From sequence record MT446388.1: DNA of 64,000 nt; one strand, 5' to 3'. Positions 54,128 to 58,835 of this stretch are shown piece by piece. Positions within the stretch are counted from its first letter, which is position 1, and each line of letters starts with the position of its first letter. This DNA comes from Escherichia virus TH10. A program made the position numbers and the translations under genes. Below the pieces are notes generated by a model, which was not told where the DNA came from, did not search any database, and saw nothing but the letters and a program-made list of their open reading frames with translations.

Positions 54128-54283
54128 TTGTGCTATTACCTGTGTCAGATTTAATATAAGACCTATCACTACGTCTTTTAATGAAATGTACAAAGCATTT
54201 TGGTGTATTTTTTGCATCTTTAATATGCAACCTTTCGAAACTGAGTACTGTGAAGATTGCATCTGTCATTGTTTGCTTAGATT

Positions 54284-54490
54284 TCATTTTCTCTTACCAC
54301 CAATTTCCACGTCGATAACCTGAACACCACTAGCAACATCAAACTTGTGAGTAATACTCTCCACAGTGTAAGTCCAACCATCAATGCGAACCCATTCACC
54401 CTCTCGTGGTACTATTGGGTTTTGTTGGGCCACGGTTGCAGTGGAATAAACAACATCGTAGCAGTAGATATAGTGTACTAAAACTTGCAT
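54284..54490 (-). CDS. hypothetical protein (about 68 aa)
   Basis: ORF track 54284..54589 trimmed to internal Met to avoid 90-nt overlap with the lipoprotein gene. Confidence 0.4.
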   Translation of the reverse strand: MQVLVHYIYCYDVVYSTATVAQQNPIVPREGEWVRIDGWTYTVESITHKFDVASGVQVIDVEIGGKRK

Positions 54491-54758: not shown

Positions 54759-54890
54759 GATAGTCTACCTCTCTGTATGTTTTTAAATAGTGAGTGATGA
54801 GTTCTGGTAATTCACTACGCTTAACGTTTGAACGAAGAAGTGTCCAGTCAAAACCTTTACCAACCCTTCCCCAGAGACTGTACATTTTCT

Positions 54891-55124
54891 TCATAGCAAC
54901 TCCAGAATATCAATACGTTCACCTTTGAGTACTCCAGTACGGTCTTTTGCAATCTTACCTTCAACAATAAGAATGTGTGCAGACCTTAAAGTGTCACTGT
55001 TAAAGGCTTTTACGAACTTGCTAGGCATCACTACAATACACATCTCCTGAATCAACTCTGGAGTATAGCAGTTGTCGTGAAGTTGCTGAATAACGTCTGC
55101 AAGTGTCATTTTTGATGTCTCCAA
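54891..55124 (-). CDS. hypothetical protein (77 aa)
   Basis: ORF. Confidence 0.45.
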   Translation of the reverse strand: METSKMTLADVIQQLHDNCYTPELIQEMCIVVMPSKFVKAFNSDTLRSAHILIVEGKIAKDRTGVLKGERIDILELL

Positions 55125-55315
55125 TACTCAATGTCAATAAGTTCTTGTGCAATGCTTTTCAGATTACCTTTCAAGAAAACCTTCTCAGAACCTGAAAGAG
55201 ATGAATTGTCAATTAACCTGCTCATTCTCTCAAACAACTTCTGCTTACGGTTCTTGATAGTCTCCTTTGAAGCACCTTTCATCATCGCTGCATGGGTTCT
55301 TCCACGGTGGCTCAT
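55106..55315 (-). CDS. hypothetical basic protein (69 aa)
   Basis: ORF. Confidence 0.45.
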   Translation of the reverse strand: MSHRGRTHAAMMKGASKETIKNRKQKLFERMSRLIDNSSLSGSEKVFLKGNLKSIAQELIDIEYWRHQK

Positions 55316-55366
55316 AAGCCCTCCTATATAAGATATAGTATAAGGTACTCTTCCATGAGCACCTTG

Positions 55367-55882
55367 TCAACTTAGTTTTGCAAACTCTCCGTGGAGTTTA
55401 ATAGCAGCTTCACAGTAAGCTTTATGGGCTTCTTCTTCCGTTGTGTATGTTCCTATATGTATAGTCTTGCCGTTATGGTTAATCTGGGCTATCCACTTAC
55501 CAGACTTGCTTCTACTTGTACCTTTTAAGTTTTTTGATGTTCTAGGTTGTCTCCTATTAGACATGTTCTGTTCTTTTGTGGCCTCTCTTAGATTGTCCCA
55601 AGCGTTATTCAAACCATCTCCATCTTTGTGGTCAATGTGTTTGTCAGGCCACTTACCTGTCATCCAGAACCAAGCAATTCGGTGATTACCTGTCCTGTAT
55701 CCTAAAATCTGTGTGTGCATATACACACCAGACCTTGTGCGCTTAATTGCTCCGGCTTGGCTTCCAATAACCACCCTACTACTATGTGGAGGTCTGCCAA
55801 TCCATGTTAAGACCCCTGTTTCGGGGTCATAATCTAACCAAGATTTTAACTGTTCATGTGTGAATCCACAATCTCTCATCAA
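55367..55882 (-). CDS. HNH homing endonuclease with AP2-like DNA-binding domain (171 aa)
   Basis: HIDHKDGDGLNNAWDNLREATKEQN (HNH) and SGKWIAQINHNGKTIHIGTYTTEEEAHKAY (AP2-like); directly downstream of DNA polymerase. Confidence 0.8.
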   Translation of the reverse strand: MMRDCGFTHEQLKSWLDYDPETGVLTWIGRPPHSSRVVIGSQAGAIKRTRSGVYMHTQILGYRTGNHRIAWFWMTGKWPDKHIDHKDGDGLNNAWDNLREATKEQNMSNRRQPRTSKNLKGTSRSKSGKWIAQINHNGKTIHIGTYTTEEEAHKAYCEAAIKLHGEFAKLS

Positions 55883-58608
55883 TGTACCTCATACCAGCTC
55901 TTACCAACCTTACCAGTACCAGTTACCAGTGTTTCTTTCTTAAGACCTAAGTTCTTAGAAGCTTGTCCATAATACCAGTCAGTAACCGCTTTCACCTCTG
56001 CCGTCATACTTTCTGGACATTCCCAACTCGTCTCATCGTGATATGCGCAGAGTAAACGAGCACCAATAGCTGGTTTGCGACCATTCAACTTCATCAAGCC
56101 TTCGTCAATCATACGACGACAAGCAAGGTTAATCGCCTCATTTTGAATCTGAGCCTCTGAACCCATCAAAAGATAGTTCAATAATTTGTGTGGAGATTTA
56201 CACCACAACCAAGCTCCAGCAACCTTTACAAAACCACCTTTAGAGATTGCAGCGGTCTTACCAAACACCTCTTCAAGTGCCTTTTTAGTTGCTTTGTAGT
56301 CAGCTTCCAAGTTATCTAATAGTTTCTTAATCTTTGGCAAACGCACAAAGTAAGTCTGTTTAGTTAATGCACCTTCCTGAGTAGTAGCTGCCTTAATAGT
56401 TTTAGCAAACTTCTCATCACCTGCACCGAACAGTAGTGCATAGATACCATTCTTAGCTTTCTTACGACCTTTGCTAATCTCATGAAGAAGATTCTCATCC
56501 TGAGTAGCTCGACAAGTCAAGATATCCTGCTCATCATTCAAGCTAAAGTAAATACTGTTCAGTGTATGTGCATCAGTCCCTGAATAGACAACGTACAGGT
56601 CATTCTCAGAGTCATAGCGAAGGTACTTATCAATCTCTGGGTTTAGGTACTCATCAAAATGTTTGCAGTAATAGCGTCCATCTTCTTGACGAATGAACTC
56701 AATCTCTTCTTTACCTTGCGTTACCGCTTTGGTGAAGTCTTTATCACCCATAAAGTTACAAAGAAGAACTAGCTGGGCTGAGTTCATATCTACAGATACT
56801 ACGTTGGTTCCCTCTTCACAAATCCACACTGCCCTCATTGGTTCCCCATAGACAGCAGCACCAGACGGTACGTTTACAATACCATATTGTGTCATACGTC
56901 CAGTTGAAGTACCAAACACCATTGCACCAGCACTAAGGCGACCATCAGGACGAATCTGGTTCAACCAACCTTTTTCATCATCCTTTGAGTTCTCAATAGT
57001 TCTGCGTCTGTGCATCAAAGTGTAGTATTTAGCAATCTTCTGTCCAAGCTCACCTTCAATCGTATCATAAGATGATTCAGTAAGTTTTGGTGAAGTACGG
57101 ATTAAGCAAGGCTCAAGCAAATCTGTGTATTTCTTCACAGACCAGTTATGCTCGATGTACTGTACACCTTCATGTTCAACATAACTCAAACCACACCGCT
57201 CAATCATTTCCTGCCACTTAGGATGCTTTGTAATCATCTTTTTATTGTCTTTGAAACGACAAACTTTGACAGGGCGACCATCTGAGTCTTTCTTGTAATT
57301 CCAGTCATCTGGAATCCAACCAACTGATTTCAAGTAGTCTTTAACAACTGCTACCTGAGTCATACGAGAAACTTCAAACTCAATTGGTGTATATGGTGCA
57401 TCAATCAATCCTGTGTAGCGACTTGACTCAAGTTCAAAGTGGTTAACAACATGGCTGTTATAGTACTTCACAGTTTTAACAGTTTTTACTGGCTTCCAGT
57501 CTTTGCATTTCTTACCAATCTTTGCATTCAACTCGTTGCAAATTGCACGGGCATCCTTCATTGCTACAAAGCCTTCCTTGTACTCTTCACCAGTTACAGA
57601 GTTGGTTGGTGTATAGCAATTTCTCTTTTCAATGTTAAAAATCTTTGTAGTTGGCTTACCAAATGGCTTGATTTCGTATGTCTGCATCTCACCGTTACGT
57701 ACCTGCTGACGATACTTTGTTTTAGGGTACTTGGTAATTCTCTTCAGTCCATCTGCATGACCGAATGTTTCAACATACTCATTCCAAGCTTTTGCAAACT
57801 CTTCTCCAGTGACTTTACCTTTGGTCTTAATAGTTGGAGGTAGATGTGGTTCAACCTCTGAAGCAAGCTCATTAGTCAACTTGTCAAGTTCCTTTACATG
57901 GAACTCCATAAGCTCTTTATCAGCTTTCCAGCCATTGATAGCTTGTTGACTCATCCAGAAAGATGTTTCTTTAGCTCGCATGTAGGTTTCATAAGTGTCT
58001 ATGCCACACTTCTTAAGCTTGAGATATTCATTATCAAGTGCCCGTTTAGTTTTGGCGTTAATACGGATATCTTCTACAACACGAGTGAAGATTTCTGCAT
58101 TCCACACACCCCAATGTTCAATCTCTGGTTTACGAACACCAACACGAGCACCCCATGCAGCCAAACCATGAGCACCTTTATAACCCTTTGGAGTTGGTCT
58201 ATCCATCCACTGAACACGAGACTGGATAAGAGAATCCTGAAAGAAATTACTCCACGGTTTACACTTTGGATTATCAAAGTTCCATAAATCAGGTGCAATG
58301 TGATTGAAAACCCACCAGTCATAACCGAGGCCGTTATGGATGCAAAGTCGTTTTGCCTTTAACGCAAACTCAACACCTTCACGTAAACCACCCTTGATGT
58401 ACTTAGTGTACTTGTGACCGAGGATAGGCTCATCTGTAAAGACCCATACAGGTGGCTCTTCATCGTCAGATTTATAGTCTGCGAAAGCCATTACGTGCAC
58501 TTTAGTGAACTCAAGGAGTAAACCATCAGTTTCTGTATCACCAACTAAATGTAAGTTTTTAAAATCTACGTTTTCCATTTTTACTCCCTCTAAAATCATT
58601 AACCTCAT
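55879..58608 (-). CDS. DNA polymerase, family A, with 3'-5' exonuclease domain
   Basis: exo I motif DTETDGL near N-terminus; polymerase motif C LLCAYHDE; 909 aa; start may be internal Met (MENVDF). Confidence 0.85.
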   Translation of the reverse strand: MRLMILEGVKMENVDFKNLHLVGDTETDGLLLEFTKVHVMAFADYKSDDEEPPVWVFTDEPILGHKYTKYIKGGLREGVEFALKAKRLCIHNGLGYDWWVFNHIAPDLWNFDNPKCKPWSNFFQDSLIQSRVQWMDRPTPKGYKGAHGLAAWGARVGVRKPEIEHWGVWNAEIFTRVVEDIRINAKTKRALDNEYLKLKKCGIDTYETYMRAKETSFWMSQQAINGWKADKELMEFHVKELDKLTNELASEVEPHLPPTIKTKGKVTGEEFAKAWNEYVETFGHADGLKRITKYPKTKYRQQVRNGEMQTYEIKPFGKPTTKIFNIEKRNCYTPTNSVTGEEYKEGFVAMKDARAICNELNAKIGKKCKDWKPVKTVKTVKYYNSHVVNHFELESSRYTGLIDAPYTPIEFEVSRMTQVAVVKDYLKSVGWIPDDWNYKKDSDGRPVKVCRFKDNKKMITKHPKWQEMIERCGLSYVEHEGVQYIEHNWSVKKYTDLLEPCLIRTSPKLTESSYDTIEGELGQKIAKYYTLMHRRRTIENSKDDEKGWLNQIRPDGRLSAGAMVFGTSTGRMTQYGIVNVPSGAAVYGEPMRAVWICEEGTNVVSVDMNSAQLVLLCNFMGDKDFTKAVTQGKEEIEFIRQEDGRYYCKHFDEYLNPEIDKYLRYDSENDLYVVYSGTDAHTLNSIYFSLNDEQDILTCRATQDENLLHEISKGRKKAKNGIYALLFGAGDEKFAKTIKAATTQEGALTKQTYFVRLPKIKKLLDNLEADYKATKKALEEVFGKTAAISKGGFVKVAGAWLWCKSPHKLLNYLLMGSEAQIQNEAINLACRRMIDEGLMKLNGRKPAIGARLLCAYHDETSWECPESMTAEVKAVTDWYYGQASKNLGLKKETLVTGTGKVGKSWYEVH

Positions 58609-58638
58609 ACATTACTGCAAAAAATTATAAAAAGCAAG

Positions 58639-58665
58639 TTGACAATGCACTTGACAAGGTGTTAA
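58639..58665. promoter_or_regulatory. conserved tandem TTGACA motif in divergent intergenic region
   Basis: TTGACAATGCACTTGACAAGGTGT; matches 15824-15852. Confidence 0.45.
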
Positions 58666-58835
58666 TCTTTGCGAAGTGGGTTTTTACTTAAAAGGTTACT
58701 TAACAGTTTAACTATACAGATACTTTAAAACTCTTAAAAGATTATTTAATAGCTTTTAAAAAGCTTTAAAGTATAACGTATAGAATACGTTAAGATAAAA
58801 GATTAAAACTTAATAGCTACTTAAAAGAGGCTTAC

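Follow-up and report, generated by a model that had tools for sequence, protein, structure and literature searches.

[quoted passage not shown]

The 64-kb stretch of DNA analysed here (the window) belongs to the genome of a Felixounavirus (Felix O1-like phage). Its 170-aa ORF behind the DNA polymerase gene is, in our judgement, very likely a free-standing homing endonuclease gene of the HNH_3/I-HmuI type with an AP2 domain, inserted at the junction of the polymerase stop codon and a TTGACA element. The first-pass annotation had already proposed a homing endonuclease, and this interpretation gains support from empty sites in relatives, from a young dS and from a copy at the same site in another Ounavirinae lineage.

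Results

Layout of the locus and start of the HNH-AP2 gene

The family-A DNA polymerase gene (55879..58608, minus strand, as are all features given below; 909 aa, stop TGA at 55881-55879) was assigned by profile searches (PF00476, E=1.8e-15; phrog_17, E=3e-114). The HNH-AP2 gene, of a lineage that we call A, occupies 55367..55879 (170 aa from the ATG at 55879; stop TGA at 55369-55367). Both ORFs thus lie where the first-pass annotation had put them, one directly downstream of the other; its span 55367-58608 covers the two genes together, and the endonuclease gene alone is 55367-55879. The HNH-AP2 gene is an independent ORF, in another frame than the polymerase and outside any intron or intein. 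It is flanked by the polymerase gene and by small early genes, and the first gene past the insertion site, in occupied and empty alleles, encodes a 69-aa protein of function unknown (phrog_5180; 55106..55315). A tblastn search detected no HNH-AP2 paralogue elsewhere in the 64-kb window.

The longest form of the ORF (55367..55882, 171 aa) begins at a TTG, and the 4-nt overlap with the polymerase stop initially described for this gene needs that TTG at 55882. The ATG within TGATG is the likelier start, giving a 1-nt overlap in which the ATG at 55879 and the polymerase stop TGA have only the A in common (surrounding sequence: GAGGTacattgATG). A Shine-Dalgarno sequence GAGGT (55890-55886) is found 6 nt ahead of this ATG, which was also picked by the annotators of Salmonella phages PMBT20 and NJ12. 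A hairpin masking this ribosome-binding site was ruled out, as the RNA fold of 55840-55940 is no stabler than that of shuffled sequences (z = -0.18).

Domains and catalytic residues of the protein

The ORF matches PF13392 HNH_3 (53.9 bits, cut-off 24.8), PF00847 AP2 (38.1 bits, cut-off 33.3) and phrog_99 “HNH endonuclease” (E=3.7e-64); the HNH and AP2 matches are far beyond chance. The HNH_3 (His-Me finger) nuclease domain spans 55562..55684 (Pfam stretch, residues 67-107 of the 171-aa ORF) and contains D83-H84 (H84, 55630-55628), N96 (55594-55592) and N105, with N108 (55558-55556) just beyond the Pfam boundary. In an alignment of 42 homologues H84, N96, L97 and R98 are invariant, and D83, E99 and N108 are conserved in at least 90%. 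The catalytic D-H pair and both Asn of the HNN motif are intact (D83-H84, N96, N105/N108); by spacing, we take H84, N96 and N105-N108 to be the equivalents of H75, N87 and N96 of I-HmuI.

The AP2 DNA-binding domain (55388..55516) is predicted to adopt the AP2 fold, a sheet of three strands packed on a C-terminal helix. Upstream of the nuclease domain, the N-terminal region (55688..55879) carries a YDPETG motif found family-wide, with Y17 and G22 invariant in the alignment; it is modelled as beta strands and is probably an extra DNA-contacting module. A single-sequence PDB search returned I-HmuI weakly (E=0.049), so that the likeness to it had to be established by fold comparison: the predicted structure resembles I-HmuI (beta-beta-alpha-metal fold) and plant AP2 domains. 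As modelled, the product fits a fusion of an HNH nuclease of the I-HmuI type with an AP2 DNA-binding domain. The HNH plus AP2-like homing-endonuclease architecture recognised at first reading therefore stands, on the Pfam domains, the predicted fold and the intact catalytic residues. An HNH protein associated with terminase, as a helper of cos packaging, was rejected: there are no terminase or portal neighbours, and the protein has no zinc motifs (no CxxC pairs in its sequence).

Empty sites and boundaries of the insertion

Relatives that have the polymerase but no HNH gene downstream, for which a search had been suggested, do exist. Among 60 GenBank rows, evenly sampled, 23 show a contiguous polymerase junction. 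In these relatives, ~40% of those sampled, the site is uninterrupted and the polymerase stop lies 6 nt from the conserved TTGACA. In Ro111lw, AYO145A, KhF1, FSL SP-107, Barry and LTH02 the joined flanks give one unbroken match. The empty allele reads ...GTACAC TAA TTAGTA TTGACA and the occupied allele ...GTACAT TGATG...AAG TTGACA. Since the HNH stop codon falls inside TTGACA, this motif marks the right edge of the insertion. Judged from these alleles, the insertion of the HNH-AP2 gene falls exactly between polymerase stop and TTGACA element of insert-free relatives.

TTGACA belongs to a conserved element, TTGACA-22 nt-TATACT (55337..55370), which precedes the downstream genes and is annotated as a promoter in phage AYO145A. 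It occurs once in the window, its 22-nt spacer is non-canonical, and it is absent from the output of a sigma-70 consensus scan. We therefore call it only conserved and annotated as a promoter, and on the same grounds we rejected it as a repeated phage promoter.

Ancestry of the gene and of its flanks

The HNH gene of the window is 94.5-98.6% identical in DNA to copies in phages whose adjacent polymerase 3' end is just 68-84% identical. Over its last 500 nt the window polymerase is 93-99% identical to that of the empty-site phage AYO145A, and only 70-90% identical to those of carriers whose HNH gene is 97.5-98.6% identical. Because the dS of the HNH gene is 0.08-0.17, against 1.16-1.40 for the adjacent polymerase codons, the gene is much younger than its flanks.

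The polymerase of a Hafnia-phage-like contig (L035) is 90% identical to that of Hafnia phage Zyzzx and 68% identical to that of the window. This contig has the HNH gene at the same position, with 94.5% nucleotide identity to the window copy; Zyzzx, its closest GenBank relative found, has an empty site. These comparisons indicate that the gene has crossed between Ounavirinae lineages, entering the Hafnia-phage-like genome recently. That the element moves between phages is indicated by relatives with an empty site and by its near-identical copy in another group of phages.

Left breakpoints fall 12-47 nt from the polymerase stop in three independent backgrounds. That of the window lies between -47 and -19 from the stop, and the polymerase sequence upstream of that point is AYO145A-like, as at an empty site; informative sites and sliding identity give 55882..55928 as the maximum extent of the lineage-A-type tract within the polymerase. 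In the alignments the polymerase tail TAT GAG GTA CAT TGA (55879..55893) travels with lineage A: every A carrier sampled has it, the Hafnia-like contig among them. Compared with the empty-site tail CTT GAA/GAG GTA CAC TAA it has an L to Y change, and it creates the ribosome-binding site GAGGT (55890-55886). The ancestry of the HNH gene is thus discordant with that of its flanks, and flanking bases have been co-converted with it. On this comparative evidence, empty sites, transfer and short exchanged tracts form the signature of a free-standing homing endonuclease gene.

The dN/dS of the HNH gene is 0.05-0.17 and every sampled copy is intact: the gene is under strong purifying selection. This selection, with no decayed copies among those sampled, would also fit a domesticated function, in which the protein would regulate the adjacent TTGACA element as an AP2-type DNA-binding protein, or would turn its nuclease on competing phages or on host DNA. 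Points in favour are the position of the HNH stop codon, within the conserved downstream element, and the CasPRs of other phages (bioRxiv 10.64898/2026.02.23.707548), in which an exapted AP2 domain serves as a sequence-specific repressor. We nevertheless consider such a function quite improbable. About 40% of close relatives have no gene here and others have alternatives of 40-52% identity, from which it follows that the role is neither essential nor fixed. A CasPR-like repressor was rejected: CasPRs combine CapR with AP2 and have no HNH domain, while the nuclease motif is conserved in the present protein. A benefit through marker exclusion would be compatible with homing, not opposed to it.

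Divergent lineages at a single site

The HNH-AP2 genes at this same site in relatives fall into at least four divergent lineages (A, B, C and D; 40-52% amino-acid identity). The last ~60-70 nt of the gene (55367..55436; ...EEAHKAYCEAAIKLHGEFAKLS*) are near-constant in all four: in windowed comparisons DNA identity between lineages is 87-100% at the 3' end (100% in most) and 19-80% elsewhere, and 69-70-nt matches of 100% to this end occur in many database records. This segment is likely the right-hand recombination anchor. On the left side the final codons of the polymerase gene differ from lineage to lineage. In L031 the lineage-A polymerase tail is followed by a lineage-B-like gene, and L009 has the lineage-A tail and no HNH gene; from their sequences we read both as traces of lineage replacement.

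We tentatively suggest, as a possibility that we rate below even, that the post-polymerase site is an arena in which these lineages, at least four in number, compete and replace each other. The lineage-specific polymerase codons would be a possible immunity determinant, and the common ~60-70-nt 3' end with the downstream element could be a landing pad for all lineages. As the swapped part includes the DNA-reading AP2 sheet, the lineages may differ in target and cut sites occupied by rivals.

Such a mosaic could in principle result from general recombination in a hypervariable region, the HNH gene being an inactive or irrelevant passenger shuffled by ordinary homologous recombination without homing. 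The whole stretch between the polymerase 3' end and the ligase gene is indeed mosaic, with group I intron, extra small genes and replaced segments varying independently, and the flanks are conserved enough to recombine within the genus. Passive carriage is however improbable in view of the intact catalytic residues and the dN/dS of 0.05-0.17, of breakpoints that cluster, in three backgrounds, within 12-47 nt from the edge of the insertion, and of the convergence of four lineages on a single site. Moreover, the gene reached the same site in a genome with flanks of no more than 53-68% identity, between which homologous recombination should be poor.

Relation to the polymerase intron of relatives

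The polymerase gene of the window is uninterrupted, unlike that of relatives in which polymerase motif B contains a group I intron (RF00028, 60.3 bits), 555 nt upstream of the HNH site; the insertion site of this intron maps to window position 56436|56435. Some versions of the intron are ORF-less and others hold their own Endonuclease_7 gene. In Si3-type loci, an apparent duplication of polymerase residues 215-252 was an alignment artefact, these loci holding the intron with the Endonuclease_7 ORF.

T4 MobE helps the I-TevIII intron, and F-CphI helps the cyanophage psbA intron. The HNH gene might likewise serve mainly to mobilise in trans the ORF-less intron, which occurs together with lineage A in NJ12, Meda and BPS17L1. 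We regard this as highly improbable. The window has the HNH gene without the intron, introns accompany empty HNH sites (L023, L026-L028), and lineages A, B, C and D also occur without intron; across the 37 loci tabulated there is no association between HNH gene and intron, and a link through collaborative or trans homing was rejected. The ORF-containing intron brings its own Endonuclease_7 gene, and the exchanged tracts of 12-47 nt fall short of the intron site.

Discussion

A homing endonuclease gene at this site could work as follows. The HNH gene has no evident promoter or terminator of its own and is probably co-transcribed with the polymerase gene, and its translation would be coupled at TGATG through the ribosome-binding site lying in the final codons of the polymerase. 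When two phages infect one cell, the AP2 and N-terminal modules would bind the insert-free junction of the other phage, which the HNH domain would nick or cut. Repair off the HNH-carrying genome would then copy the gene and only about 12-47 nt of polymerase tail. The very short exchanged tracts narrow the likely target to the region of the polymerase stop; as deduced from the breakpoints alone, the target probably spans the stop codon. A candidate core is AGTACAC-TAA-TTA, across the polymerase stop, and the candidate target AGTACACTAATTA is common to Felixounavirus and Hafnia-phage empty sites. We propose that the carrier would be immune, its own copy of this target being destroyed by the insertion and by the altered tail (TATGAGGTACATTGATG). 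What we infer here is cleavage as such, whether by a nick or by a double-strand break, together with its exact target and its consequences for co-infecting phages, marker exclusion included; in the literature we found no biochemical or genetic data on any HNH gene at this Felixounavirus site, that of the window included.

I-HmuI of Bacillus phage SPO1 (PDB 1U3E), a nickase, is the structural prototype of His-Me finger group 2 and of Pfam HNH_3. It is encoded within a group I intron and binds DNA by NUMOD/helix-turn-helix modules, whereas the gene of the window is free-standing and its protein has a predicted AP2 domain instead. I-HmuI-like His-Me finger nucleases constitute group 2 (PMC5714182). 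The identical architecture, an N-terminal HNN-type HNH and a C-terminal AP2, is that of the free-standing HNN-AP2 or “IPA-HNH” genes of Xanthomonas phages Xp10/OP1/Xop411, Vibrio phage ICP1 and T5 (hegG/hegJ), which occur in several copies per phage lineage, often beside replisome or essential genes (PMC2248197, PMC10448857). For the Xanthomonas phage genes no conserved flanks were seen and a sequence-independent spread was proposed (PMC2248197). At the Felixounavirus site, in contrast, insertion is site-specific and the empty sites are precise to the base pair. We found in the literature no HNN-AP2 or “IPA-HNH” member with a mapped cleavage site.

The SegF, SegG and MobE genes of T4 are intergenic, next to an essential gene, patchy among relatives and associated with flanking co-conversion and marker exclusion. 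The HNH-AP2 gene is like them in being intergenic, beside an essential gene, present or absent among relatives and flanked by co-converted bases, and marker exclusion would be expected of it too. The enzymes differ, the Seg proteins being GIY-YIG enzymes and MobE an HNH protein of another sub-family without AP2.

Co-conversion tracts in T4 are hundreds of bp long. The exchanged tracts described here are much shorter, at 12-47 nt, a difference that counts against the homing reading.

At the very same site behind the polymerase, Felix O1 has ORF218, which also combines HNH_3 and AP2. It is 40% identical in amino acids to the protein of the window, the last ~70 nt being DNA-identical, and its start lies inside the polymerase gene with a 19-nt overlap. 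Six HNH homing-endonuclease-like genes have been reported in Felix O1 (PMC3185647), and public records of relatives already annotate the gene as an HNH homing endonuclease. The class of element is therefore known and the finding itself is ordinary. What is added here is a natural experiment, with empty and occupied alleles that can be compared to the base pair across hundreds of sequenced phages, and the description of four rival lineages at one site with a recent jump into a Hafnia-phage-like genome. Felixounavirus phages are used in typing and biocontrol of Salmonella and E. coli. The site is a convenient system to map the first cleavage site of an HNH-AP2 enzyme, and it could serve to measure the effects of such elements on recombination boundaries and marker exclusion in Felixounavirus.

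The polymerase-HNH junction

The family-A DNA polymerase gene (909 aa, 55879-58608, minus strand; PF00476, phrog_17) is adjoined by a second minus-strand ORF (55367-55882) that matches HNH_3 (53.9 bits, cut-off 24.8) and AP2 (38.1 bits, cut-off 33.3) in Pfam, and phrog_99 "HNH endonuclease" (E=3.7e-64). The arrangement described in the first-pass annotation is thus recovered, with both domain matches above cut-off and one small correction. The junction reads ...TGG TAT GAG GTA CAT TGA TG AGA..., and the two genes do overlap; the 4 nt given there hold for the longest ORF, which begins at TTG 55882. The ATG at 55879, with GAGGT 6 nt 5' of it and likewise picked by the annotators of relatives, reduces the overlap to 1 nt (TGATG stop/start).

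Over 4.2 kb around both genes the window is 93-97% identical to many Felixounavirus genomes (e.g. Salmonella phage SeKF_63, 96.9%; Escherichia phages ASO1A/B and Andreotti), in which the small ORF is labelled "HNH (homing) endonuclease". Next to the polymerase gene, the intergenic region 58609-58835 is divergent and AT-rich (about 32% GC), with a change of sign in both gene orientation and GC skew; it probably holds the divergent promoters of the polymerase operon and of the rightward genes.

In an alignment of 42 homologues of the HNH protein, H84, N96, L97 and R98 are invariant, and conservation is at least 90% at D83, E99, N108 and W129; the motif is of the cysteine-free HNN type. The AlphaFold model built from this alignment is confident (mean pLDDT 93.2), and a PDB sequence search returns the AP2 domain of WRI1 (E=3.3e-8) and I-HmuI (E=0.049). 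HNH_3 proteins with AP2 domains are grouped with I-HmuI among the His-Me finger nucleases (PMC5714182), and HNN-AP2 or "IPA-HNH" genes are described as one class of free-standing homing endonuclease genes in phages, often near replisome genes (PMC2248197; PMC10448857); six HNH homing-endonuclease-like genes are reported for Felix O1 (PMC3185647). All sampled copies of lineage A, the window's allele, are intact with dN/dS of 0.05-0.17, so the protein is being kept functional.

Empty and occupied sites

The two flanks, 476 nt per side, were joined and searched against phage genomes. The Felixounavirus records Ro111lw, KhF1, FSL SP-107, Barry and LTH02 give one contiguous match, and a 114-nt probe of the empty junction matches contiguously in 23/60 rows sampled evenly from 291 records. 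Polymerase genes lacking the downstream HNH gene, which the homing reading calls for, therefore exist among relatives. The polymerase 3' end is present in 302 records; only 158 contain some part of the window's HNH gene, and just 49 contain at least 80% of it. A role in regulation or defence, acquired by domestication in addition to homing, is possible but need not be invoked, since about 40% of the sampled relatives have no gene here.

Aligned empty sites read ...AGC TGG CTT GAA GTA CAC TAA TTAGTA TTGACAAGGTGCTC..., and occupied sites ...AGC TGG TAT GAG GTA CAT TGATG-[HNH]-...AAA CTA AGT TGA CAAGGTGCTC.... The boundaries are thereby resolved to the base pair, and the HNH stop codon falls inside the conserved TTGACA. 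The final polymerase codons are changed in occupied sites (L to Y, GAA to GAG) and in this form supply the HNH ribosome-binding site.

The element to which this TTGACA belongs, TTGACA-22 nt-TATACT (55337-55370, minus strand), lies directly 3' of the polymerase or HNH gene and occurs once in the window. The AYO145A and ASO1A annotations call it a promoter, but a standard sigma-70 promoter would have a shorter spacer; an inner TGCTCA-13 nt-TATACT loosely resembles the T4 middle-promoter layout.

Four lineages at one site

We surveyed the site in 37 loci from GenBank and IMG/VR. It contains nothing, an extra small gene accompanied by a second copy of the TTGACA element, or an HNH-AP2 gene from one of four or more lineages: A; B (DR094 type); C (Felix O1 ORF218, which starts within the polymerase gene); and D. 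Lineages B, C and D are 40-52% identical to A and 41-58% among themselves (protein), and a domain scan of A, B and C confirmed HNH_3 and AP2 in each. The polymerase tail differs from lineage to lineage. Across the four lineages, the final ~60-70 nt of the HNH gene (55367-55436, minus strand) are 87-100% identical in DNA, and in most cases 100%, against 19-80% for the remainder of the gene; this points to recombination repeatedly resolving within the HNH 3' end. The shared stretch is wholly absent from empty sites.

L009 (IMG/VR 2706796270, 87,603 bp) has the lineage-A polymerase tail TGG TAT GAG GTA without an HNH gene, and in L031 (IMG/VR 2974591419) the complete lineage-A tail (TATGAGGTACATTGA) precedes an HNH gene resembling lineage B; these tails may be footprints of lineage-A loss and replacement. 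The extra gene (66-72 aa, MTLSEIEVQLQ...) lies just 3' of the polymerase or HNH gene in L002 (1922-2140; ULIM8), L009, L014, L016, L017 and L019. The window has a diverged paralogue of it at 54891-55124 (product MTLADVIQQLH...), and in ULIM8 a second TTGACA element is inserted alongside the extra gene at the same hotspot. Elsewhere, at about 54200-54400 and 54800-54990, many otherwise near-identical relatives have unrelated sequence (11-37% identity in 100-nt bins); these are additional variable positions in the stretch of small early genes from polymerase to ligase.

Movement between phages

The last 500 nt of the window's polymerase gene are 93-99% identical to AYO145A, whose site is empty. 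Against the carriers L020 and L025 (Si3) the polymerase identity is only 70-90% over the last 500-1000 nt; their HNH genes are 97.5-98.6% identical to the window's. Between the window and PMBT20, dS is 0.08 in the HNH gene versus 1.16 in the last 180 polymerase codons, and between the window and L035 0.17 versus 1.40. L035 is an 84.7-kb IMG/VR contig whose polymerase gene shares 90% identity with that of Hafnia phage Zyzzx, compared with about 68% for Felixounavirus. Lineage A (94.5% nt, 96% aa) occupies the same position in it, again with the TGGTATGAGGTACATTGATG junction, while the Zyzzx site is empty, with a terminator-like hairpin and T-run after the polymerase stop. From these comparisons lineage A appears to have jumped recently into a Hafnia-phage-like genome.

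In the window, the lineage-A-type tract has its left edge 19-47 nt ahead of the polymerase stop; the corresponding distance is at most 12 nt in NJ12 and at most 24 nt in L035. Breakpoints that recur so near the edge of the cassette are better explained by repair of a break at the insertion site than by random recombination, particularly for L035, since the flanks there are only 53-68% identical. Passive shuffling of the HNH gene through general recombination is possible but less likely, as it accounts poorly for the clustered breakpoints, for a cross-lineage transfer that reached the same position, and for the conservation of the catalytic motif.

Expression and proposed target

In the window we found no convincing promoter or terminator between the two genes, and no special hairpin at the HNH ribosome-binding region. 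The HNH gene would therefore be co-transcribed with the polymerase gene, and its translation coupled to that of the polymerase at TGATG.

After invasion the window kept its own polymerase sequence to within those 19-47 nt of the stop. The predicted recognition and cleavage site must thus lie in the short converted tract or span the insertion point, as otherwise the product would stay a target. Empty sites of Felixounavirus and of Zyzzx have AGTACACTAATTA in common across the polymerase stop; those of Erwinia phages differ there, and a search of phage records turned up no Erwinia phage with a lineage-A copy. The polymerase stop-codon region is thus the best candidate for the predicted target. 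The polymerase C-terminus ...VH* is conserved in the Felixounavirus, Hafnia-phage and Erwinia-phage groups, and conserved sequence tends to be what homing endonucleases exploit. The predicted enzyme may nick its target, as I-HmuI-type enzymes do, or make a double-strand break.

A group I intron in relatives

The NJ12 polymerase gene contains a group I intron (RF00028, 60.3 bits) that splits motif B at ...TATGCGT/...G/TATTG (protein ...NGIYA/LLFGAG). The site corresponds to 56436/56435 in the window, 555 nt before the polymerase stop, where the window has no intron. Many relatives carry it, including NJ12, PMBT20, Si3, Mushroom and BPS17L1 (loci L007, 4072-4406, minus strand; L006, L023, L025-L028 and L031), either as a short form of 269-312 nt without ORF or as a long form of ~806 nt with a 160-aa Endonuclease_7-family ORF (PF02945, E=6e-20). 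In GenBank records the split polymerase appears as a pair of separate "DNA polymerase" genes, and a 383-bp gap is mentioned without explanation in the genome note on Mushroom.

That the HNH gene acts as a helper of this intron is not supported: the intron also accompanies empty HNH sites (L023, L026-L028), not just lineage A, HNH lineages exist without it, the window's included, and the long form has an endonuclease ORF of its own. The last 500-1000 nt of the polymerase gene (55883-56900) form a high-dS island (0.8-1.4; 70-90% nt identity) between phages that are 95-100% identical in the remaining polymerase gene and the HNH gene. The intron site and the HNH site bracket it, as if turnover or escape variation there were driven by both mobile elements.

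Significance

Empty sites, discordant ancestry and an intact catalytic motif support the first-pass reading: behind the polymerase gene lies a recurrent insertion site, occupied here by a predicted free-standing HNH-AP2 homing endonuclease gene. Genes of this kind are well known, and public genomes already label this one as such, so that there is little new here. The population-level picture, with precise empty sites, four competing lineages with a common 3' anchor, a recent jump into a Hafnia-phage-like genome and very short exchanged tracts, is no surprise but a useful and testable by-product.
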